Counted from the first letter of the stretch, positions 18,341 to 29,987 are shown. The stretch: DNA of 64,000 nt from Syntrophobacteraceae bacterium (GCA_013314815.1 JABUEY010000002.1:4192-68191); one strand, 5' to 3'. Numbers and translations are program-made. The notes: generated by a model from the letters alone, not told the origin.

Positions 18341-18910
18341 ATGCAGCAGACCGGTTTGAGTCCCGATTTTACTTTCCTGGAAAGAGTGGAAGCGGCCGGG
18401 CCTTTTCATGCAACGGAATGCTTCCAGTGTCGAAAATGTACGAACGGCTGCCCTGCTTCGTTTGCCATGGATCTTTTCCCCGATCAGGTGATCCGCCTGG
18501 CCCTGCTCGGGCAGAAGCAGGAGGTTCTGAGTTCACAGACGATCTGGGTGTGTGCCGCCTGTGAAACATGCAGCACGAGATGTCCCAACGGGGTCCGCAT
18601 CGCGGAGCTCATGGACCATCTCAAGGAAATGGCCGTGAAGGAGGGCGTCCCGTCTCCTCAGCCCCAGGTGCTTGCGCTCCATCAAAGCTTCCTGGAGAAT
18701 GTACGGCTTACCGGCCGGGTTTTCGAGGGAGCGCTGCTTCCCGTGTTTCTGCTGCGCAGCGGGCAGATGAGAAGCAAGATCGAGAAGGGCACCTGGCGCG
18801 ACGAAGCGCGCCTCGGCTGGAAGCTCCTCCGTAAGAAACGGCTGTCACTCCTGCCCACCGTGATCAAGGGGAGAGGTGAAATCAGCGCCATTCTTCGCCC
18901 ATCCAAATAA
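18341..18910 (+). CDS. hdrC: Heterodisulfide reductase subunit C-like (2x[4Fe-4S])
   Basis: Two ferredoxin-type cluster motifs: CFQCRKCTNGCP and CAACETCSTRCP. Size and position ahead of hdrB also fit. Confidence 0.8.
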   Translation: MQQTGLSPDFTFLERVEAAGPFHATECFQCRKCTNGCPASFAMDLFPDQVIRLALLGQKQEVLSSQTIWVCAACETCSTRCPNGVRIAELMDHLKEMAVKEGVPSPQPQVLALHQSFLENVRLTGRVFEGALLPVFLLRSGQMRSKIEKGTWRDEARLGWKLLRKKRLSLLPTVIKGRGEISAILRPSK

Positions 18911-18925
18911 ACAGGGATCCTTATC

Positions 18926-19786
18926 ATGAAGGTGACTTACTATCCGGGATGTTCGTTGGAAGGCACCGCGAGGGATTACGCGGATTCCATTCACGCCGTG
19001 TGTTCTTCTTTCGGGATCGAACTGGAGGAGGTTCCCGACTGGAACTGCTGCGGTGCGACGGCGGCTCACAGCATCAATCACAAGGCCGGCGTGGAACTGC
19101 CGGTGCGGAACCTGAAGCTGGCGGCAACGGTGGCCAACTCCGAAATGCTGGTGCCGTGCCCTCTGTGCTTCAACCGTCTCAAGACGGCCGTATGGCAGTT
19201 GGGCGGGGAGAGCAGCAGCCGGTTTCAGGCCGAGGTGGGGAGTCGGGCTCCGCGCATCTGGGACCTGGCCAACTACTTTGCCGGTGAAGAGATGCTCAGA
19301 AAGATGGAGGCCGCCGTTACAAAGCCCCTCGAAAAGCTCAAAGTCGTCTGCTACTACGGCTGCATGGCGAGTCGGCCGCCTGAGATCACGGGGGCTGCGG
19401 ACCACGAAAACCCGCAGAGTCTCGATCTGATCGTGAAGGCTCTGGGCGCCACGCCCCTTGCATGGCCGTACAAGACCGACTGCTGTGGAGCGAGCCTCAT
19501 GATTTCGAGGCCGGACATGGGCTACAGGCTGGTTGGCAAGCTCTATGACATGGCCTTGCGGGTGGGGGCGGAGGCCGTCGTGGTCTCGTGCCAGATGTGC
19601 CAGAGCAATCTCGATATGTACCAGGACAAGATCGAAGCGGAAATGGGAAGAAAATTTTCCCTTCCCATCATTTACTTTACGGAACTGATCGGCCTTGCGT
19701 GCGGGGTGCCGGGCGCTGAAGGATGGCTGTCGCGGCATTTTACCGACCCGCTCCCCCTGCTCCGCAGGACGGGGATTGCATACTGA
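18926..19786 (+). CDS. hdrB: Heterodisulfide reductase subunit B-like (two CCG domains)
   Basis: Begins MKVTYYPGCSL and carries NCCGA and DCCGASL CCG-type Cys motifs. Confidence 0.85.
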   Translation: MKVTYYPGCSLEGTARDYADSIHAVCSSFGIELEEVPDWNCCGATAAHSINHKAGVELPVRNLKLAATVANSEMLVPCPLCFNRLKTAVWQLGGESSSRFQAEVGSRAPRIWDLANYFAGEEMLRKMEAAVTKPLEKLKVVCYYGCMASRPPEITGAADHENPQSLDLIVKALGATPLAWPYKTDCCGASLMISRPDMGYRLVGKLYDMALRVGAEAVVVSCQMCQSNLDMYQDKIEAEMGRKFSLPIIYFTELIGLACGVPGAEGWLSRHFTDPLPLLRRTGIAY

Positions 19787-19838: not shown

Positions 19839-22800
19839 ATGTCACAGCAAGGAAATAAAACAATGCGGAAAGCACAGAAGATCGGTGCAGTCACGGTCGT
19901 CGGGGGAGGGATCTCCGGAATCCAGAGTGCCCTGGATATCGCCAATTCAGGTTTCAAGGTGTACCTGGTGGAGGAGCAGCCAAGTGTGGGAGGGATCATG
20001 GCCAGGCTCGACAAGACCTTTCCCACCAACGACTGCTCGTCCTGCATGATGGGTCCCAAGCTGGTGGAACTGGCCAATCACCCCAATATCGAGATCCTGG
20101 CCTATTCGGAACTGCTCGATGTCAAGGGGGAGCCAGGACATTTTCAGGCGACCGTCAGGAAGAAGGCCCGGGCAGTGGATCCGGAGAAATGTGTCGGGTG
20201 CGGCATTTGTGCATCCAAGTGTCCGACGAAGGTGCCCGACCCGTTCAACGGCGGGTTGAGTGAGCGCAGGGCCATTTATGTGCCCTTCCCGCAGGCGGTG
20301 CCTCTTGTATATACCATAGATAAGGAGCATTGCCGGTATTTTACCAAGGGCAAGTGCCGCATCTGCGAGAAGCTCTGTAAGAACAAGGCAATCAGGTACG
20401 ACCAGGAAGACGAAATCGTCACGCTGGACACGGGAGCGGTCATCCTGGCCGGGGGGTTCGAACCTTTCGATGCGCGGCGCAAGGCGGAATACGGCTACGG
20501 GCTGTGGCCGAATGTAGTGACAAGCCTGGACTACGAAAGAATCCTGTCCGCAGCGGGTCCGTTCCAGGGGCACATCCAGCGGCTCTCGGACGGAAAGACT
20601 CCCGACAGGATCGCGTGGATTCAGTGCGTCGGGTCGAGAGACAGCAGCATCGGCCAGGATTACTGTTCGTCCGTGTGCTGCATGTACGCCACCAAGCAGG
20701 CGATGATCACCAAGGAACACGAAAGGCACATCGACACGACGATCTTTTTCATCGACATGCGTGCCCAGGGAAAAGGGTTCGACAGGTTTTACGAGCGGGC
20801 CCGGGACGAGTATGGAGTCCGGTACGTCAGGTCGATGATTTCGAGGGTCGTCCCTGTGCCCGAAACGGACCGGCTCCAGATCAGCTATGTCGAAGGCAGC
20901 CAATCGCCGAAGCAGGAGGAATTCGACATGGTTGTGCTGTCCGTGGGTCTGTGTGCTCATCCGTCGACCATAGGTCTAGCGGGCAGGCTGGGGATCGACG
21001 TGGATGCTCAGGGCTTCTGCGTTACGGATCCGCTGGATTTCGTGGCGACTTCGAGGCCGGGCATTTTCGTGAGCGGGGTTTTTCAGGGGCCCAAGGACAT
21101 TCCTGATTCGGTTCAACAAGGGAGCAGCGCGGCGGCGGCTTCCACTGCTCTGCTTTCCGAGGCGAGGGGTTCGCTCATACACGTGCCCCCCCGGCCCGAG
21201 GAGAAGGACGTCAAGGGTCAGAAGCCGCGCATCGGGGTCTTTGTCTGCCACTGCGGGATCAATATCGCGGGCGTCGTGAAGGTGGACGAGGTGGCGGAAT
21301 ATGCCATGACTCTGCCGGGGGTCGAATACGCATCGAACTGCATGTTTGCATGCTCGACGGATCAGCAGAAGGAGATCAAGCGGGTCATCGAGGAGAAGCA
21401 GTTGAACCGCATTGTCGTGGCTTCGTGCACGCCCAGGACTCATGAACCGCTGTTCCGCAATACTCTGCGGGAGGCGGGGCTGAATCCCTACCTGTTCGAA
21501 CTGGCCAACATCCGGGAACAGGATGCCTGGGTCCATCAGAACGAACCGGGTTCAGCAACGGAAAAAGCGAAAGACCTGGTGCGCATGGCCGTATCGCGAT
21601 CGAGCCTCCTGGAACCGCTCCACGATTTCTCCTACGAAGTGGTGCAGAGGGCGCTGGTGATCGGAGGAGGCCTGGCCGGCCTGACGGCGGCGCTTTCCAT
21701 TGCGGACCAGGGTTTTCCGGTAGTCCTCGTCGAAATGACGCCGGAACTGGGAGGCAACGCCAGGACGGTTTATTATGCCCAGGGAGGCGGAAAGCCTGCG
21801 GCCCACGTGGAAGAACTCATCGCCAGGGCGGAATCTCATCCCCTCATCACTGTTTATAAAGACGCTTACGTCATGTCCACCATGGGGAGCTGCGGCAATT
21901 TCAATACGATCCTGGCCTGGCAGGGCAAGCACGAGGAAATCCAGCACGGCGTGACCATCGTGGCGACGGGAGGCGAGGAATACAAGCCGGACGAATACCT
22001 GTACGGGCAGCATCCTCGAGTGATGACTCAACGGGAGTTCGAGTCGCTTCTCATCAATGACCCGGCTCGTGCCGCGACGTTCAAAAAGGTGACAATGATC
22101 CAGTGCGTGGGGTCCCGTGAGCCGGATAACCTCTACTGCAGCCGAATCTGTTGTACATCGGCCATGAAGAACAGCATCAAGCTGAAGGAAGTCAATCCCG
22201 GGGCGCAGGTTTCTGTGCTGTACCGCGATATCAGGACGTTCGGGCAGAGGGAAATGGCGTACCAGGAGGCCAGGAAGCGGGGGGTCCGGTTCTTCCGCTA
22301 CGAATGGGAGCGCAAGCCGGAGGTGAAAGCGGACGGCGACCGGCTCAATATTTCTATGTTCGACGCCAACCTGGAGCGCCAGGTCGATATGGATACGGAT
22401 CTGCTGGTGTTGAGCGCGGCCGTGCGTCCCCGGGCCGGCTGCAAGCAGCTTTCGGAAGTGCTGCGGCTGCCCCTGGACGAGGACGGGTTCTTCCTGGAAG
22501 CGCACCTCAAGCTGCGGCCTCTCGATTTTGCCACGGCTGGGTATTTCCTCTGCGGGCTGGCTCAGGGGCCGAAGTTTGCCAATGAAGCCATCGCCCAGGC
22601 TCGGGGAGCGGTGTCCAGGGCCATGACGATCCTGTCTCAGAAGGAGATCGTGGCCGAAGGGGTGGTGACCGAGGTCAATCCCGACCTGTGCAGGGCATGT
22701 GGAGAATGTGAACAAACGTGTCTTTTTGCGGCCATAAAGGTCACGGAAGTGGAAGGTGGACGGAAGCAAGCTGTTGTCACTCAGGCGCTTTGTACGGGAT

Positions 22801-22892
22801 GCGGTGCGTGCAATGCGGCCTGCCCGACGGGGGCGGCGTCGCTGGCCCATTTCCGTGACAAGCAGGTCAACGCGGTGATTCAGGCCCTATAA
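19839..22892 (+). CDS. hdrA: Long HdrA-like flavoprotein (two tandem HdrA-type halves, C-terminal 2x[4Fe-4S]); all-Cys version
   Basis: 1017 aa. FAD motifs VVGGGISGIQSA and VIGGGLAGLTAA. HdrA motif FPTNDCSSCMMGPKL. Several CxxCxxCxxxCP motifs. An alternative start exists at ATG 19863. Confidence 0.85.
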   Translation: MSQQGNKTMRKAQKIGAVTVVGGGISGIQSALDIANSGFKVYLVEEQPSVGGIMARLDKTFPTNDCSSCMMGPKLVELANHPNIEILAYSELLDVKGEPGHFQATVRKKARAVDPEKCVGCGICASKCPTKVPDPFNGGLSERRAIYVPFPQAVPLVYTIDKEHCRYFTKGKCRICEKLCKNKAIRYDQEDEIVTLDTGAVILAGGFEPFDARRKAEYGYGLWPNVVTSLDYERILSAAGPFQGHIQRLSDGKTPDRIAWIQCVGSRDSSIGQDYCSSVCCMYATKQAMITKEHERHIDTTIFFIDMRAQGKGFDRFYERARDEYGVRYVRSMISRVVPVPETDRLQISYVEGSQSPKQEEFDMVVLSVGLCAHPSTIGLAGRLGIDVDAQGFCVTDPLDFVATSRPGIFVSGVFQGPKDIPDSVQQGSSAAAASTALLSEARGSLIHVPPRPEEKDVKGQKPRIGVFVCHCGINIAGVVKVDEVAEYAMTLPGVEYASNCMFACSTDQQKEIKRVIEEKQLNRIVVASCTPRTHEPLFRNTLREAGLNPYLFELANIREQDAWVHQNEPGSATEKAKDLVRMAVSRSSLLEPLHDFSYEVVQRALVIGGGLAGLTAALSIADQGFPVVLVEMTPELGGNARTVYYAQGGGKPAAHVEELIARAESHPLITVYKDAYVMSTMGSCGNFNTILAWQGKHEEIQHGVTIVATGGEEYKPDEYLYGQHPRVMTQREFESLLINDPARAATFKKVTMIQCVGSREPDNLYCSRICCTSAMKNSIKLKEVNPGAQVSVLYRDIRTFGQREMAYQEARKRGVRFFRYEWERKPEVKADGDRLNISMFDANLERQVDMDTDLLVLSAAVRPRAGCKQLSEVLRLPLDEDGFFLEAHLKLRPLDFATAGYFLCGLAQGPKFANEAIAQARGAVSRAMTILSQKEIVAEGVVTEVNPDLCRACGECEQTCLFAAIKVTEVEGGRKQAVVTQALCTGCGACNAACPTGAASLAHFRDKQVNAVIQAL

Positions 22893-22901
22893 GGAATACC
22901 G

Positions 22902-23372
22902 ATGTCTGATACGTTCGAACCGAAGATCGTGGCTTTCTTGTGTAACTGGTGTGCGTATGCGGGAGCCGATCTGGCAGGGGTGGCGCGCATGCAGTACCCC
23001 ACCAACGTGAGGCTCATCCGCCTCATGTGCACCGGTAGAATCAACCATGCGTTTCTGCTCAACGCCTTCCGGGCCGGCGCCGACGGCGTGATGGTCTCCG
23101 GGTGACACATCGGAGACTGCCATTACCTGGGAGGTAATGAAAAGTGTAAGAAGGTGGTGGAGGAGACCTGGAAGGTCCTGAGGCTGCTCGGTGTAGACGA
23201 GCGGTACCTTCGCCTCAAGTGGATTTCCGCTTCGGAAGGGGCCATTTTTGCGGAGGAGATCCGATCCTTCACGCATCTGCTCAAGGAGATGGAAAGGAAT
23301 CCTCTGTCGGAGAAGGACCTCGATGCTTCCGGTGCAGTCGAAGAGGGGGCGCCACAGGCTTCCGCCGTGTAA
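22902..23372 (+). CDS. mvhD: MvhD-type (methyl-viologen-reducing hydrogenase delta subunit) protein with one in-frame UGA (Sec) at 23103-23105
   Basis: Track ORFs 22902..23105 and 23154..23372 are in the same frame with no other stop between them. The joined reading is ...[24 protein letters not shown].... The U falls exactly where MvhD has the conserved Cys of the GCHxGDCHY motif. A hairpin lies 15 nt downstream. Confidence 0.85.
23121..23139 (+). promoter_or_regulatory. SECIS-like hairpin after UGA 23103
   Basis: CATTACC-TGGGA-GGTAATG: a perfect 7-bp stem with a G/U-containing loop, starting 15 nt after the UGA. Confidence 0.5.
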
Positions 23373-23510: not shown

Positions 23511-24641
23511 ATGGAACAGGCTATGAAACTGAGCAAGGAACAGATCGATTATTGCATGGAATGTGGAGTCTGCACGGGAAGCTGTCCCATCAGCCGGTTG
23601 ATTCCGACTTTCTCGCCCCGTCAGATGATCAAACGCGCCCTGATGGATCTGGACGAGACGGTGGTGAAGGGCAGGGAACTGTGGGCATGCCTGACGTGTG
23701 CTCGATGCAGTACCCGCTGTCCGGTTCAGATCGATTTTCCCGAGTTTGCCCGTATCTACCGTGGCAGGGCCAGGAAAGAAGGCAACCTGCCGCAGCTCAG
23801 CCACCACGGTACTCTGCAGGCCGTTACCGCCCTCCAGACGCGCCCCGTCAGGCAGAACAGGACGGAGTGGGCCAGGGAGACGGGCAAGTTTGCTTCCACG
23901 GGCGATTACTTTTTCTTCGTCGGATGTGCACCCTTCTTCGATGCGGCTATCAAGTTCGGGGACACGTCGATGGATACCGTCAAAAGCGTTCTGAAACTGG
24001 TCAACCGCATGGGGATCGAACCGGTGATCAGCGACGATGAATGCTGCTGCGGGCATGATGCGCTCTGGAGCGGTGATGAGGCGACCTTCCGCAAACTGGT
24101 GCGGAAGAATCTCGATGCCATCAGCGGATCCGGGGCGAAAACGGTGTTCTTCAGCTGCCCCGAAGGGTACGCTACATTTAAGCACCATGTACCGCAGTAT
24201 TTCGGCGAACTTCCCTTCGAAGTGCTCCATATCACGGAATTCCTGGCACGGGAACTGCCCGGATCGGGTGTGAAGTTCGCGCCGGCTTCCAATGGAGACG
24301 GAGTCGTCACCTACCAGGATCCGTGCAGGCTGGGTCGAAAAGCCGGGATTTACGAACCTCCGCGCGATCTTTTGAAGCTCGTTCCCGGCCTCCAGATCGA
24401 GGAGATGGGGCTCAACCGCGAAAATGCTGTGTGCTGCGGAACCAGTGCCTGGATGGAATGCTCCAACTGCTCCAAGACGATGCAAACGGAGAGGCTGCTG
24501 GAGGCTCTCGAGACAGGTGCAAAGACCCTCATAACAGCCTGTCCCAAGTGTCGCATCCACCTGACATGCGCTCAAAGCAACACCGATTTGCACATGGACG
24601 TAGCTGACCTTTATACCTTTATTTTGAACCGTATCGAATGA
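23511..24641 (+). CDS. HdrD-like Fe-S oxidoreductase (HdrC-type 2x[4Fe-4S] N-terminus fused to HdrB-type CCG domains)
   Basis: Cluster motifs [12 protein letters not shown] and [12 protein letters not shown], followed by ECCCGHD and [11 protein letters not shown] motifs. 376 aa. Confidence 0.8.
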
Positions 24642-26212
24642 CGGGTGATACAGTAACCCGGAAGGAGATCAGTGTCGTGAATCGGGATGTTCTAGTCATT
24701 GGAGGAGGCATAGCGGGCATCCAGGCGTCCCTGGACCTTGCCGAGATGGGGATCAAAGTGCACCTGGTGGAAAGGCTGCCCAGCATTGGCGGTAAGATGT
24801 CTCAGCTGGACAAGACCTTCCCCACCAATGACTGCGCCCTCTGAATCCTGGCTCCCAAGCTGATGGATGTCGGTCGACATCCCAATATCCGGCTTCTGGC
24901 GTACTCGGAAGTGGAAAAGGTCGAAGGGGAACTCGGGGATTTCAAGGTCACCGTTCGCAAGAAGGCCCGCTACGTGGATGAAAGCAAGTGCACGGGATGC
25001 GGAGCGTGTGCCGAAAAATGCCCGACGGCGATTTCCGATGAATACAACCTGGGCCTGGCCAATGCCAAGGCCATTTATCGGTATTTCGCGCAGGGCATTC
25101 CGTCCACGTACACCATCAACACCAACTTCTGTCGCAACTTTCAGGCGGGCAAGAAGTGTGGAGTATGCGCCAAGGTGTGCCAGGCCGGAGCCATCGACTA
25201 CAAGCAGCAGGACCAGGTTCTGGAAGTCGAGGCGGGAGCCGTAATCCTGGCCACGGGGTATGAACTGTTCGACGCCCGAAGAATCCCGGAATACGGGTAC
25301 GGGCGCCTGCCGAACGTGGTGACTGCTCTCGAGTTCGAACGGTTCCTGTCGGCCAGCGGACCGACTCACGGGCATGTGTACCGGCCGACGGACCTGGCCC
25401 TGAAGGAGTCGCTGCCCGAACTCGAGAAGTCCCGGCAGAAGGCCTTCAAGGCTCTGGAGAAGTTCGAAAAGCAGTTCGAGAAGACCTCGGACGAGTTCTA
25501 CCCCCTCTATGAAGCGGGGGAGCTCAAAGGGGAGGACTACGAGAAGTGGGCTGAACAGGTCAGGGCATTCCGGGACCTCGACGGCGAAGTCCAGGCCAGG
25601 AAGGAAAAGGTGGCTTCTCTCGAATCCGCTCACCGGCTGGCCTTCATACAGTGCGTGGGATCGAGGGACATCAGGTTCAACCGCTACTGTTCCGGCTTCT
25701 GCTGCATGCATGCCATCAAGGAAGCGATCATAGCCCGGGAGCACGATCCGCAGGCGCAGGTTTATATTATCGGCATGGATATACGGGCTGTGGGCAAGGG
25801 GTTCGAGGAGTACCGGAACAGGGGCGCGAAGGAATCCCACATCGAGTATGTCCGGAGCCGTGTGGCGGAGATCACGGAGGATAAGGATCATTCCCCGGTG
25901 ATCTGGTATGAAGACACCAAGGAGAGGGTGGTCAAGAGCCTGCCCGTGGACCTGGTCATCCTGTCCACGGCCTGTGAACCGAGTCCTGCCACGAGGATTC
26001 TGGCAGACATCATAGGTTTGGAAGTCAACGACTTCGGCTTTTACGCCACGGATCCCTCCCAGCCTCTGGATACATCACGCCCGGGCATCTTCGTGTGCGG
26101 GTGTGCTCAAAGTCCCATGGATATTCCGGAATCAGTGGCTCAGGCCAGCAGCGCCGCCGCCCGGGCGGCCCAGGTTCTGTCAGGTTCCGGGACGCTGCGT
26201 CTCGCATCCTGA
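24638..26212 (+). CDS. hdrA: HdrA-like flavoprotein (N-terminal-half paralog) with in-frame UGA (Sec) at 24842-24844
   Basis: Track ORFs 24638..24844 and 24863..26212 share a frame. The joined reading [24 protein letters not shown] aligns residue-for-residue with FPTNDCSS-C-MMGPKLVELANHPNI of the upstream paralog. The ATG overlaps the previous stop (ATGA). Confidence 0.85.
24865..24882 (+). promoter_or_regulatory. SECIS-like hairpin after UGA 24842
   Basis: GGATGTC-GGTC-GACATCC: 7 bp plus a GGUC tetraloop (8 bp if the loop is closed further), starting 20 nt after the UGA. Confidence 0.45.
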
Positions 26213-26226
26213 AGGAGAACAGTTGA

Positions 26227-27924
26227 ATGAGCGGACATGCCATGAAGAAAGGTAATGCAGACGCGCAGGAGACGAGAATAGGCGTATTCATCTGTCACTG
26301 CGGTTCGAACATCGCCGGCTACCTGGATTGCGAGGCGGTGACCAAGTATGCGACGACCCTCCCCGGCGTGGTGTACGCCAAGAACAACCTGTACACCTGT
26401 TCCGAAGCGGGTATCGGAGAAATCAAGTCGGCCATCGCGGAGCATAAGCTCAACCGAGTCGTGGTGGCTTCCTGTTCTCCCCGCACTCACATGCCCCTGT
26501 TCAAGAGTGCGTGTGGGGAAGCGGGCCTGAATCCTTACCTGTTCGAGATGGTGAACATCAGGGACCAGTGTTCCTGGGTTCATATGCAGGAGAGGGAGGA
26601 AGCGACCGGAAAAGCCATGGACCTGGTTCGCATGGGGGTGGCCAAGGCGACCTTCCTCGAACCCCAGGAAGACATCGAGTCTTCGCTGGTTCGCAGGGCG
26701 GTGGTGATCGGAGGAGGCATGGCCGGACTCTCCGCCGCCGAAGCCCTGGGTGACATGGGGATGGAGGTGATCCTGGTGGAGAGGGAGCCCCGGTTGGGCG
26801 GCCTGCTCAGGCGGATCAACCGCATCGCTCCGCGGGGAGGTTCGGCGGCGGAGCTTATCGAGGAGCGGATATCCAGGGTTCAGTCCAGGGACAACATCAA
26901 GATCTGCCTCGAATCGGAAGTCACCGCCGTCGGCGGCTACATCGGCAACTATGAAGTGACCGTGCGCGATCGTGCAGGGCAGGAAAGCCAGGAGACGGTC
27001 GGCTGCATCGTGGTGGCGACGGGGGGAGTCCCCCTCGTGCCCGAGGGTCTGTTCGGCTACAACGGCAGGAACGTGATCACTCAGATCGAGCTGGAGGAGA
27101 GGCTCAAAAGCGGCCCTCTGGACGCCACACGAGTGGTGATGATCCAGTGCGCGGGAGCCAGGTCCGCCGAACGGCCCTATTGTTCCAGGATCTGCTGTCT
27201 TACAGCCGTAAAGAACGCCATTTACATCAAGGAGCAGAATCCCGAGGCGGATGTGCATATCCTTTACCGGGACATCCAGATGTACGGAGCCGAGAACGAA
27301 AGGCTGCTGTGGGAGTCCAGGGGAATGGGAGTGCGATACGATGTTTACAACGTCGAGCGTCCCCCCGTTGTGAAAGAGGATGTGGTGGAGTTCTACCAGC
27401 CGCTGATGGGGCAAGTCTACGATCTGCCCTACGACCTGGTGGTTCTGTCCACGCCCGTGGTGGCCAGGGAAGACGCTCCGGCCATTTCGCAGCTTATGCG
27501 CATCCCCATAGACCAGAACAACTTCTTCCTGGAAGCGCATGCAAAGCTTCGTCCTCTCGATTTTGCCACGGACGGCATCTTTCTGTGCGGATCGGCGCGA
27601 TATCCCGCCACGGTGGGGGAAGCTCGCGCCCAGGGGCTTGGAGCCGCATCGAGGGCGGGGACGGTCCTTTTCAAGGACAAGCTCGTTACCAGCGCCCTGG
27701 TGGCGGCCATCAACCCCGAGACCTGCGTGGGCTGCCAGGGATGCCTGATGGTTTGTCCGTACGGAGCCATCCGGTTCGATACGCAGAGAGGTGTATGTGA
27801 AGTCAACACCATTTTGTGCAAGGGCTGTGGCAACTGCGCATCCACCTGTCCTTCTCAGAGTGTTGTTTTGAAGGGATTTTCACCCAAGCAGCTTCTGTCT
27901 CAGATACGGGTCATGCTGAGCTGA
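26227..27924 (+). CDS. HdrA-like protein corresponding to the C-terminal half of the 1017-aa paralog (FAD domain + 2x[4Fe-4S])
   Basis: RIGVFICHCGSNIAG...LNRVVVASCSPRTH...VIGGGMAGLSAA...CVGCQGCLMVCP/CKGCGNCASTCP is collinear with residues ~470-1017 of ORF 19839..22892. A GAAGGAG SD lies 7 nt upstream. Confidence 0.8.
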   Translation: MSGHAMKKGNADAQETRIGVFICHCGSNIAGYLDCEAVTKYATTLPGVVYAKNNLYTCSEAGIGEIKSAIAEHKLNRVVVASCSPRTHMPLFKSACGEAGLNPYLFEMVNIRDQCSWVHMQEREEATGKAMDLVRMGVAKATFLEPQEDIESSLVRRAVVIGGGMAGLSAAEALGDMGMEVILVEREPRLGGLLRRINRIAPRGGSAAELIEERISRVQSRDNIKICLESEVTAVGGYIGNYEVTVRDRAGQESQETVGCIVVATGGVPLVPEGLFGYNGRNVITQIELEERLKSGPLDATRVVMIQCAGARSAERPYCSRICCLTAVKNAIYIKEQNPEADVHILYRDIQMYGAENERLLWESRGMGVRYDVYNVERPPVVKEDVVEFYQPLMGQVYDLPYDLVVLSTPVVAREDAPAISQLMRIPIDQNNFFLEAHAKLRPLDFATDGIFLCGSARYPATVGEARAQGLGAASRAGTVLFKDKLVTSALVAAINPETCVGCQGCLMVCPYGAIRFDTQRGVCEVNTILCKGCGNCASTCPSQSVVLKGFSPKQLLSQIRVMLS

Positions 27925-27960
27925 TGTGAGAGAACCATTTTACCCGAGAAAGGAATTTGC

Positions 27961-28401
27961 ATGAGCGACGACGGGTTCGAACCGAAGGTGCTGTGCTTCC
28001 TCTGCACGTGGTGAGCATACGCCGCTGCTGACCTGGCTGGGGTCAGTCGTATTCAGTATCCGACCAATGTTCGGATCATCAGGGTGATGTGTTCCGCCGG
28101 TGTGTCGCCTCATCACATACTCCGCGCCTTCCAGCAGGGGGTCGACGGAATCTTTGTGGGTGGATGACGCCTCGGTGACTGCCATTACCTGTATGGTAAT
28201 TACTCGACCAAGAAGCGCGTTCAGTTTTTGAGGCAGTTATTGAGTTTCAGCGGAATCGAGGAGGAAAGGCTGAGATCCAGGTGGGTATCCTCGGCCGAGG
28301 CTCCCGAGTTTGCGGCTGAAATCAAGGAATTCATCGAAGAACTGCGAGCCATGGGACCGTCTCCTTTGAAGGCTCGGGGCAAGACCGGCAAAGCCGCCTG
28401 A
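27961..28401 (+). CDS. mvhD: Second MvhD-type protein with two in-frame UGA (Sec) codons at 28012-28014 and 28165-28167
   Basis: Not in the ORF track at all. My translation is MSDDGFEPKVLCFLCTW-U-AYAAADLAGVSRIQYPTNVRIIRVMCSAGVSPHHILRAFQQGVDGIFVGG-U-RLGDCHYLYGNYSTKKRVQFLRQLLSFSGIEEERLRSRWVSSAEAPEFAAEIKEFIEELRAMGPSPLKARGKTGKAA. It is collinear with the first mvhD ([15 protein letters not shown]; VSG-U-HIGDCHY). AAAGGAA SD upstream. The 441 nt have no other stops. Confidence 0.8.
28028..28046 (+). promoter_or_regulatory. SECIS-like hairpin after UGA 28012
   Basis: CTGACC-TGGCTGG-GGTCAG: a 6-bp perfect stem starting 13 nt after the UGA. Confidence 0.4.
28184..28200 (+). promoter_or_regulatory. 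SECIS-like hairpin after UGA 28165
   Basis: ATTACC-TGTAT-GGTAAT: a 6-bp stem starting 16 nt after the UGA. It is positionally equivalent to the hairpin at 23121. Confidence 0.45.
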
Positions 28402-28512
28402 GAATGCTCGGGCGGGAGGAGCCTCGACCGGAGGGAGGCCGCCCGGCCTTCGATGCCCGGTGTACGCAGATGTTGGACACTGTTGCTTTCAGGAAAAATA
28501 TAAAGGCAGACG

Positions 28513-29310
28513 ATGAAACAAAAAGTCATTGATCGCGTGAAGGAACTTCTGGAAGCGGGGAAAATTCAGGGCTTTGTCGGGCTTCGAGAAAGCGGGGGCC
28601 ATGTGAGTCCCTACGTTTTCACCAAGGCCGAAGAGCTTGCGGAACTCAGTCTGGGAGACCACGAGAAATCCGGTGACGCGCGCTATCCGCTGAACAAGGT
28701 GCTCATCCGCCTTGCCCGGTCTTATCCCGATGCAACATTCGCGGTCCTGGTGCGCGGTTGCGATGAACGAGGCCTGATTGAACTTTTCAAATGGAACCAG
28801 CTGGCCCGGGAACGGGTAATTTCCGTGGGCATTACCTGCCCGCCGGACCTGGCTGAGGCGTGCTCATGCACCCGTCCATACCCCGAAGAACCTGTCGCGG
28901 GGGACAAAGGGAATGGTGTCGCCCAAAGCCCGGCCCTTGAAAATATCCAGGCTATGGCGACTCAGGATCGGTTCAGGTTCTGGATGGACCATTTCGACCG
29001 ATGTGTGAAATGCTACGGGTGCCGCAATGTCTGTCCCATGTGTTTCTGCAATGAGTGCAGCCTCGAAGAAGACGAACTCGTCGAGACGGGAGTTCTCCCC
29101 ACGGAGAATCCCATCTTTCACCTGACCCGTGCTGTTCACATGATAGGCCGGTGCATTGACTGCGGTCTTTGTGAAGAGACCTGTCCTGCGGACATCCCGC
29201 TCAGGACACTCTACAAAAAAGTGGCCGAAATCGTTGCGGAGCAAACCGGATTCCGTCCAGGTGTGGATCCGGAAGAAAAATGTCCGTTCAACATATACGG
29301 CGACACGTAG
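28513..29310 (+). CDS. 4Fe-4S dicluster protein (AsrA / hydrogenase Fe-S subunit-like), last gene of the hdr/mvhD locus
   Basis: 265 aa with CVKCYGCRNVCPMCFC and CIDCGLCEETCP motifs. Family placement beyond 'Fe-S dicluster protein' is uncertain. Confidence 0.7.
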   Translation: MKQKVIDRVKELLEAGKIQGFVGLRESGGHVSPYVFTKAEELAELSLGDHEKSGDARYPLNKVLIRLARSYPDATFAVLVRGCDERGLIELFKWNQLARERVISVGITCPPDLAEACSCTRPYPEEPVAGDKGNGVAQSPALENIQAMATQDRFRFWMDHFDRCVKCYGCRNVCPMCFCNECSLEEDELVETGVLPTENPIFHLTRAVHMIGRCIDCGLCEETCPADIPLRTLYKKVAEIVAEQTGFRPGVDPEEKCPFNIYGDT

Positions 29311-29332
29311 CCAAAGAACCGCCAATCCGTTT

Positions 29333-29381
29333 CCGGCGGGCCGGTCTGCAGCTTTCTTCGACAGGCATTCCGGCCCGCCGC
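29333..29381 (+). terminator. Candidate terminator hairpin after the hdr/mvhD locus
   Basis: CCGGCGGGCCGG ... CCGGCCCGCCG: an 11-bp GC stem with a ~25-nt loop, 23 nt after the stop at 29310. It is followed by only a weak U-rich stretch (GCGTTTCCTTCC). Confidence 0.35.
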
Positions 29382-29987
29382 CTGGCGTTTCCTTCCTTGC
29401 CACTGGTCTTTTCAGGAGATATCCCTTCCCAGCTCGTCCCAAATCCTTCCCGGATCTCAGGATCCCCGTGATTCCTTTGCGGGCCGACTCGATCTCTGCG
29501 CCGGGGATTCTCTGTCACCCGGAATTGCCTGTGAGGATACCGAAGTCAAAACACTTCGTTGCGAGTCACCTGTCCGGGTTGGACGAGGACGCCTCGCCCT
29601 CCGGTCCCAAGGATTCCGGCCGATATTCGCCGAAGGTGATTGACGTCCGGGACCGATCTTCCTTGTCACACCGGCCGCATTCTGATATGAATGACGGACG
29701 CAATCGGGTGCTCAATTCGGAGTTCCCCGGCGCTGAGTCTCGAATCAAGAACAAAACAGCGGCGTTAAAAGAGGGGTGCTCCGCCTCCGTGCGGAGCTGT
29801 AAAAGCTTCCTCCTCCCTTTGCGGAGAGGCAGGGAGCAAGGAGTAAACTTATCTTTTTGCAGGCTGGAATATAACCGCCCGGCAGGCGGTTTCTCCGGAC
29901 AGGGGTCAGGGAAGCTGAATTCCTGTTCAAGTGATGAACCTGCCGGGACTGATCCATCGGGGTTTTCAATCAGGAGGTGAGTGAAGA

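Follow-up and report, generated by a model that had tools for sequence, protein, structure and literature searches.

Our analysis indicates, with a probability that we put at about 90%, that mvhD2 is intact and encodes an MvhD-type [2Fe-2S] subunit acting as adaptor in an HdrA-type flavoprotein complex, and that both of its internal UGA codons are decoded as selenocysteine (Sec). The gene lies in a stretch of 64,000 nucleotides (nt) from a Syntrophobacteraceae bacterium (GCA_013314815.1, JABUEY010000002.1:4192-68191), and this whole stretch is called the window below. Within its 441 nt there are two predicted bacterial selenocysteine insertion sequences (SECIS), one per UGA. The gene and its parts are as follows.

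27961..28401 (+): mvhD2 coding sequence, 146 amino acids (aa), predicted Sec at residues 18 and 69; own stop TGA at 28399-28401
27950..27954 (+): Shine-Dalgarno-like AAGGA, 6 nt 5' of the ATG at 27961, as read from the sequence
28012..28014 (+): predicted first Sec codon, UGA, residue 18, in the CxxU motif C15-T-W-U18; an invariant cysteine (Cys) in MvhD structures and in Cys homologues
28165..28167 (+): predicted second Sec codon, UGA, residue 69, first Cys of GC(H/R)xGDCHY; an invariant Cys in MvhD structures
28027..28047 (+): predicted SECIS 1, GCUGACCU-GGCUG-GGGUCAGU, 8 bp, 5-nt loop starting GG, -11.6 kcal/mol
28184..28200 (+): predicted SECIS 2, AUUACC-UGUAU-GGUAAU, 6 bp, 5-nt loop, G-U at loop positions 2-3

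A first-pass annotation had proposed that 27961-28401, when read through the TGAs at 28012 and 28165, gives a protein of 146 aa. The translation agrees: the TGAs at codon 18 (28012-28014) and codon 69 (28165-28167) are the only internal stops, and the motifs that had been quoted around them, FLCTW*AYAAAD and GG*RLGDCHY, are found there letter for letter. The predicted Sec product would read FLCTW-U-AYAAADLAGVSR around residue 18 and GG-U-RLGDCHY around residue 69, and the two Sec are 51 codons apart. For searches, Cys was substituted at both TGA positions of the product. The FlpD profile search that had been suggested returns a match running across both UGAs and over the entire profile of PF02662 (positions 1-123 of 123, E = 9.3e-52, 174.7 bits against a curated cutoff of 22.3), and mvhD2 is a full-length member of this family. 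Among structures in PDB, MvhD/VhuD chains of six distinct sequences match with E values from 1.9e-47 to 4.7e-32. In the five alignments printed, Cys stands opposite both TGAs, as the last Cys of CNWC and as the first Cys of GGCHxGDCHY. The family has five conserved Cys columns (CxxC, C, CxxxxC), which bind or flank the [2Fe-2S] cluster. As defined by five PDB chains and the Cys homologues, they are filled in mvhD2 by C15, U18, C44, U69 and C74, in keeping with the earlier statement that the first UGA aligns with a Cys of the paralog and the second with the conserved first Cys of the MvhD motif. The best match, 5odc_D (E = 1.9e-47, residues 6-138), is the MvhD of Methanothermococcus thermolithotrophicus; its five conserved Cys columns align with those of mvhD2, but it has Cys at both positions in question and belongs to a [NiFe]-hydrogenase/HdrABC complex.

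The codons at these two columns were then read in related loci. A genome scan, with one genome per species, gave the 80 best-matching loci, all from Thermodesulfobacteriota, each of which was aligned in frame to mvhD2; a metagenome scan gave 80 contigs, in which the codons at both columns were read. The counts, given as first/second position, were as follows.

TGA/TGA: genome scan 31/80; metagenome scan 19/80
TGA/TGY: genome scan 1/80; metagenome scan 3/80
TGY/TGA: genome scan 48/80; metagenome scan 56/80
TGY/TGY: genome scan 0/80; metagenome scan 1/80
First site outside coverage: genome scan 0/80; metagenome scan 1/80

When both scans are pooled (160 loci), 50 loci have both TGAs, four have only the first, 104 have only the second and one has neither. 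The first position is TGA in 54 of the 159 loci covering the site and TGY in the remainder, and the second is TGA in 155 of 160 and TGY in five. The alignments begin at residue 1-6 and nearly all extend to 136-146 in the genome scan (137-146 as quoted across the 160 loci), and no further stop or frameshift is found inside the alignment in any of these loci. The Cys/Sec alternation that had been anticipated among orthologs is thus present at both columns, with no frame decay, and the two-TGA orthologs retain a protein identity of 66-80% through the end of the gene. The two-Sec form is common, not rare, in this ortholog group, as it accounts for 31 of the 80 best-matching species-representative genomes. 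These include Desulfobacteraceae, Desulfatiglandales (e.g. strain NaphS2), Syntrophobacteraceae and Desulforhabdus; the closest named relatives are Syntrophobacteraceae, in particular Desulforhabdus. A local assembly error can be ruled out because three metagenome contigs from other samples encode an identical mvhD2 protein. When Sec is masked as Cys, a neighbor-joining tree places all 41 distinct sequences that have TGA at the first site in a single clade with no other members. Built on 125 residues, the tree is weak; it points to Sec being gained once at site 1 and lost at least twice at site 2. A group of Desulfobacula-type two-Sec orthologs (L008, L010, L016, L018, L029 and L036) reads HLSECNY or HKGECNY, not HLGDCHY, after the second Sec. 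These orthologs have other residues in place of the conserved Asp and His beside the last cluster Cys, yet retain the two TGAs and the two hairpins.

Bacterial Sec decoding requires SelB to bind a hairpin immediately 3' of the UGA, and this would be why mvhD2 carries two separate SECIS elements within its coding sequence. Stem-loops 13-16 nt after each UGA had been reported in the first-pass annotation; both are present, the second at 16 nt as stated, and the first slightly closer, at 12 nt. The loops start 20 nt after the first UGA and 22 nt after the second. The hairpins are written into codons for AADLAGVS (hairpin 1) and HYLYGN (hairpin 2). Nucleotide-level constraint was read from the entropy of synonymous codon choice, normalized to its maximum, for codons with a conserved amino acid.

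44 distinct two-Sec sequences: hairpin 1 (codons 22-29) 0.08; hairpin 2 (codons 75-77, 79, 80) 0.01; rest of gene 0.80 (minimum 0.36)
96 distinct sequences with Cys at site 1 and Sec at site 2: hairpin 1 0.79; hairpin 2 0.00; rest of gene 0.86

Codons 22-29 encode the same amino acids in the Cys-site-1 group as in the two-Sec group, with synonymous choice free. Conversely, where site 2 is Cys, hairpin 2 is lost in 4/4 independent homologues (L030, L091, L103/L107 and L148) by synonymous changes, examples of which are CAC, UAU, CUC/UUG and GGC/GGA. Tyr codon 78, in the loop of hairpin 2, varies freely (entropy 0.88-0.95), and the few substitutions within the hairpin-1 stem all preserve pairing, being C-to-U across from G or A-to-G across from U. 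Selection at the nucleotide level therefore acts on a hairpin if, and only if, its UGA is present, as is predicted for a bacterial SECIS. Since within one ortholog group each putative SECIS comes and goes with its UGA, these genes could serve well for training and testing programs that detect bacterial SECIS.

The paralog of mvhD2 provides a further instance of hairpin 2.

22902..23372 (+): mvhD1, mvhD2 paralog, 48% identical; predicted single Sec at TGA 23103-23105, site 2; Cys at the first position
23121-23139 (+): mvhD1 hairpin, CAUUACCU-GGG-AGGUAAUG, after the TGA at 23103

The collinearity of the two genes, noticed in the first-pass annotation, is borne out by the alignment; left unmentioned there was that the translation of the paralog has an in-frame TGA of its own at 23103, at the second position. 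Within the 64 kb of the window there are two copies of the hairpin-2 motif and no more (chance expectation 0.01), each lying 16 nt after a site-2 TGA, in mvhD2 and in mvhD1. The published consensus for bacterial SECIS (bSECIS) comprises a loop of 3-9 nt, a stem of 4-16 bp, G in loop position 1 or 2, a UGA-to-loop distance of 16-37 nt and a minimum free energy of -7.5 kcal/mol or lower. Hairpin 1 agrees with every one of these constraints (8 bp, loop GGCUG, 20 nt, -11.6 kcal/mol), and hairpin 2 agrees with the geometry (6 bp, loop UGUAU, 22 nt) and reaches the energy only with its flanks.

It could be argued that mvhD2 is a duplicated mvhD decaying through two nonsense mutations, considering that it has two in-frame stops in 146 codons and a paralog 5 kb upstream, and that automatic callers break the gene up. 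We regard such a pseudogene as extremely unlikely: the same two TGAs are found in the same columns in 50 independent loci, with the level of identity given above held to the gene end. These orthologs are not assembly copies of one sequence, as they comprise 44 distinct DNA sequences. The related loci have no frameshifts and no other stops, and the high synonymous variation outside the two hairpins reflects purifying selection, not decay. Equally negligible in our view is the idea that UGA has been reassigned to Trp or Gly (genetic codes 4 and 25) and that mvhD2 is an ordinary open reading frame (ORF). The best protein-database matches (P0001-P0008) are full length and do show Trp at both Sec columns; however, they come from contigs of 0.5-1.4 kb, for which a metagenome gene caller can pick code 4, and they are most likely code-4 translations of the two-TGA gene, that is, mistranslated selenoproteins in a public metagenome catalogue. 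Moreover, both columns are invariant Cys in the family, and UGA is the terminator of at least five genes of the operon to which mvhD2 belongs (hdrB, hdrD, the two halves of hdrA2, hdrA2N and hdrA2C, and mvhD2 itself), at lengths consistent with those of homologues. A third possibility is that only the second UGA encodes Sec, while the first ends a leader of 17 codons and the protein starts downstream, without C15 and U18. Single-Sec MvhD with Sec at site 2 is the commonest bacterial form, and the database entries P0018, P0041, P0042 and P0044 begin at MQYP, past the first site. In the window, however, the product reads RIQYP at that point and a start codon is lacking, the 17 codons before the first UGA show conservation of the protein sequence (with the cluster motif FLCTW among them), and hairpin 1 is frozen only with the first UGA present. 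Such a truncation would also cost one of the five conserved Cys positions, and the cryo-electron microscopy (cryo-EM) structure of BamF shows Sec at the CxxU position, so that we consider a downstream start very unlikely.

Several results weigh against Sec decoding of mvhD2. The energy of hairpin 2 is -4.7 kcal/mol alone and -13.7 kcal/mol when forced with flanks, and an overlapping alternative fold at site 2 is slightly more stable; the 6-bp hairpin is nevertheless favored, because the alternative needs the freely varying base of the Tyr codon to be paired. Single-sequence folding is no better than that of shuffles (z = +0.22 and -1.55), and the stems are nearly invariant, with almost no true compensatory covariation, which leaves the frozen synonymous sites as the argument. 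Rfam gives no match in the whole window at the gathering threshold, and a permissive scan of 27900-28450 gives a single chance match, to a small nucleolar RNA (E = 1). As for the machinery, a tRNA scan of the window and a scan of the window and fetched loci for SelA, SelB and SelD motifs were made; selA, selB, selD and tRNA-Sec were found neither in the 64-kb window nor in the 21 kb of contig beyond its 3' end, and no sel genes or tRNA-Sec were found in the 1.3 Mb of related loci fetched; the presence of the machinery is assumed. Indirect support for its existence comes from the three predicted selenoprotein genes in one operon and from Desulfobacterium autotrophicum, a member of the same broad group as the host, in which a full set of Sec-machinery genes has been described. 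In addition, Sec69 may be one of the four ligands of the [2Fe-2S] cluster, an assignment made by elimination among the five conserved Cys columns and not from coordinates; ligand assignments for the MvhD cluster are not given in the literature that we examined. The weakness of hairpin 2, the stems without real covariation and the lack of an Rfam match would also suit frozen hairpins that serve as some other mRNA feature, such as a pause site, a stability element or a regulator, with the UGAs read through by another route. Against this, each hairpin is present exactly where a UGA lies 12-16 nt upstream and is lost when that codon is Cys, its position, loop size and loop G agree with the bSECIS consensus, and the same hairpin-2 motif follows the predicted Sec codon of the paralog mvhD1. 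We thus find this explanation improbable, about as much so as a downstream start, and prefer to read the two elements as SECIS.

mvhD2 is part of the gene string hdrC-hdrB-hdrA1-mvhD1-hdrD-hdrA2N-hdrA2C-mvhD2-orf265, the other members of which are given below.

18341-18910 (+): hdrC, head of the gene string
18926-19786 (+): hdrB, head of the gene string
19839-22892 (+): hdrA1, 1017 aa, fused double HdrA with an all-Cys CxxC
23511..24641 (+): hdrD-like, two [4Fe-4S] motifs and two CCG domains, BamD/HdrBC-like; Pfam CCG and Fer4_8
24638..26212 (+): hdrA2 N-terminal half (hdrA2N), predicted Sec at TGA 24842-24844 in CxxU, from the translation and the paralog motif TNDCSSC
24865-24882 (+): hdrA2N hairpin, GGAUGUC-GGUC-GACAUCC
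26227..27924 (+): hdrA2 C-terminal half (hdrA2C), second HdrA-like unit and ferredoxin domain; Pfam and NCBIfam HdrA2 matches
28513..29310 (+): orf265, 2x[4Fe-4S] protein, adjoining the 3' side of mvhD2 in nearly every related locus

The end of hdrA2C at 27924 lies 36 nt 5' of mvhD2, an order kept in related loci, and the synteny hdrA2N-hdrA2C-mvhD2-orf265 is kept in almost every one of them. Besides mvhD2, the operon holds two genes that would encode selenoproteins with Sec at known positions, mvhD1 and hdrA2N; the TGA of hdrA2N is kept in 59 of the 59 related loci covering the site, where the paralog HdrA1 has CSSC. The hdrD-like product has NCBIfam matches of the TfrB/HdrC type, all under the cutoff. 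For orf265, known families match only the C-terminal 2x[4Fe-4S] part and the first ~150 residues are uncharacterized; names given to its homologues by the Joint Genome Institute (JGI) are 'formate dehydrogenase (F420) beta subunit' or 'ferredoxin', and its product may be a donor or acceptor module of the complex. The double HdrA, similar to BamE, is one gene of 1017 aa in copy 1 and two adjacent genes in different frames in copy 2 (449/525 aa and 565 aa), a split kept in many related loci; in some relatives with Cys at site 1 the two halves are apparently fused. The start ATG of hdrA2N overlaps the stop of hdrD (ATGA), and the ORF list gives only the part of hdrA2N after its TGA (24863-26212). 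Between orf265 and a Tim44-like gene there is a gap of ~680 nt (29311-29987) with no JGI gene call. An ORF that fills this gap, at 29156-29980 (+, 274 aa, TTG start), runs into the 3' part of orf265; tblastn finds no counterpart of it in the ~160 related loci, and it is treated as spurious.

If both UGAs are decoded as proposed, the ribosome would insert Sec at residue 18 (CxxU, beside the cluster) and at residue 69 (first Cys of GCxxGDCHY), and translation would end at the third UGA, at 28399. MvhD2 would then most likely dock on the split HdrA2 encoded just upstream, which would have a CxxU Sec of its own. The remaining subunits would be the HdrD-like protein and the FeS protein of 265 aa. 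By analogy with known complexes, we suggest that MvhD2 is the [2Fe-2S] adaptor of the HdrA2 module, with its Sec residues tuning the step from cluster to flavin. In BamF, Sec19 lies beside the [2Fe-2S] cluster and was described as near the cluster, not ligating it; Sec18 of MvhD2 would correspond to this position by numbering and CxxU motif, not by alignment. A Cys pair of BamE beside the bifurcating flavin adenine dinucleotide (FAD) is thought to join in thiol/selenol chemistry, and HdrA of Methanococcus maripaludis has Sec197 with a Se-S bond near FAD, the same position (the canonical HdrA CxxU) as that of the predicted Sec of hdrA2N. The extra selenium would be placed between the MvhD cluster and the bifurcating flavin, a region for which thiol/selenol chemistry is suspected in two recent cryo-EM studies and where recent cryo-EM papers left a gap of ~28-33 Å unexplained. 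It would be tempting to propose that U18 and U69 of MvhD2 and the CxxU Sec of HdrA2 form a selenium electron relay, in which Sec69 is a direct selenolate ligand and Sec18 shuttles via Se-S or Se-Se bonds between the cluster and the Cys-Sec pair of HdrA2. We hold this idea to be speculative and rather unlikely, but if true it would address that gap and explain the cost of a second SECIS in one bacterial clade. The role in electron bifurcation of two Sec around one [2Fe-2S] cluster, with a third in the partner flavoprotein, is to us the more interesting question.

Sec-containing MvhD/FrhD/VhuD proteins are an established selenoprotein family, and two-Sec VhuD has been known in archaea since 1997. 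In archaeal VhuD, the two Sec are ~50 codons apart and one SECIS in the 3' untranslated region (3'-UTR) serves both UGAs. A 2007 survey reported one Sec per bacterial homologue and none with both, and in a 2026 review the family is entered with two Sec and the CxxU motif, but multiple Sec are mentioned for archaea only. Our search of the literature for bacterial two-Sec MvhD found only the archaeal cases and this 2007 statement. In contrast to that survey, a sizeable bacterial clade carries both predicted Sec, as judged from the codons at the two columns. Two-Sec bacterial MvhD is, moreover, already in the databases: the record of the cultured relative Desulforhabdus amnigena, which has the same operon, both TGAs and the same hairpin-encoding codons, calls the ortholog full length across both TGAs. 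D. amnigena is a different species, and its adjacent orf265 is 72% identical.

The closest likeness in overall design is with archaeal VhuD (Methanococcales, Methanopyrus and Lokiarchaeota), which shares with mvhD2 the Pfam family, a length of ~150 aa, the spacing of the two Sec, an hdrA neighbor and the CxxU motif. The two differ in that one 3'-UTR SECIS serves both UGAs there, and in mvhD2 each UGA has a predicted intragenic hairpin of its own. We do not assign mvhD2 to the archaeal VhuD equivalog, as its score against NCBIfam VhuD (NF045873) is 132.1 bits, below the cutoff of 215, and the host is a Syntrophobacteraceae-like bacterium; no Vhu hydrogenase genes were found near mvhD2 among the Pfam and JGI calls. 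Bacterial single-Sec MvhD/FrhD (Olavius symbionts; MvhD1, 2, 3 and 5 of D. autotrophicum; mvhD1 of the window) has the same family, host group and hdrA/hdrL association, but has Sec at one of the two columns, whereas mvhD2 and the 50 related loci would have it at both. BamF, of the class II benzoyl-CoA reductase of Geobacter metallireducens, likewise belongs to the MvhD-type [2Fe-2S] adaptors and has its Sec at the first position. Its partners are BamE, a fused double HdrA whose CxxC pair is close to the bifurcating FAD, and the HdrD-like BamD, and the order hdrD, hdrA2N+C, mvhD2 in the window is that of BamD-BamE-BamF. However, BamF is extended by >100 aa and has a winged helix and a second Rossmann domain, and only one Sec has been described in it, whereas mvhD2 has the canonical MvhD length. 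We therefore reject an identification of mvhD2 with BamF, for which 146 aa is too short; neither bamB/C (tungsten AOR) nor bamGHI was found by Pfam families within ~10 kb (9839-32892 of the window).

Standard callers had been expected to annotate nothing, or an antisense ORF at 27940..28185, in place of mvhD2. This ORF is present, and Prodigal-type calls behave largely as foreseen: the metagenome-assembled genome GCA_030153565.1, which encodes the same orf265 protein, has an antisense ORF of 169 aa at the mvhD2 site (L164 8285-8794, -). JGI, however, did call something at this site. Its calls, made on the metagenome contig Ga0181298_100026 (109 kb), of which the window is part, split all three TGA-containing genes of the operon, leaving only a 53-aa C-terminal fragment of mvhD2 and dividing mvhD1 into pieces of 67 aa and 72 aa. 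Prodigal-type callers shred or invert three genes of this operon, which, together with the mistranslated catalogue entries, distorts the lists of Hdr/Mvh modules compiled for sulfate reducers and syntrophs. The expectation fails for the D. amnigena GenBank record (GCA_027925305.1, BSDR01000001.1), in which the two-TGA ortholog is called as one product of 143 aa (L166 8339-8770), and the TGAs of mvhD1 and hdrA2N are read through as well.

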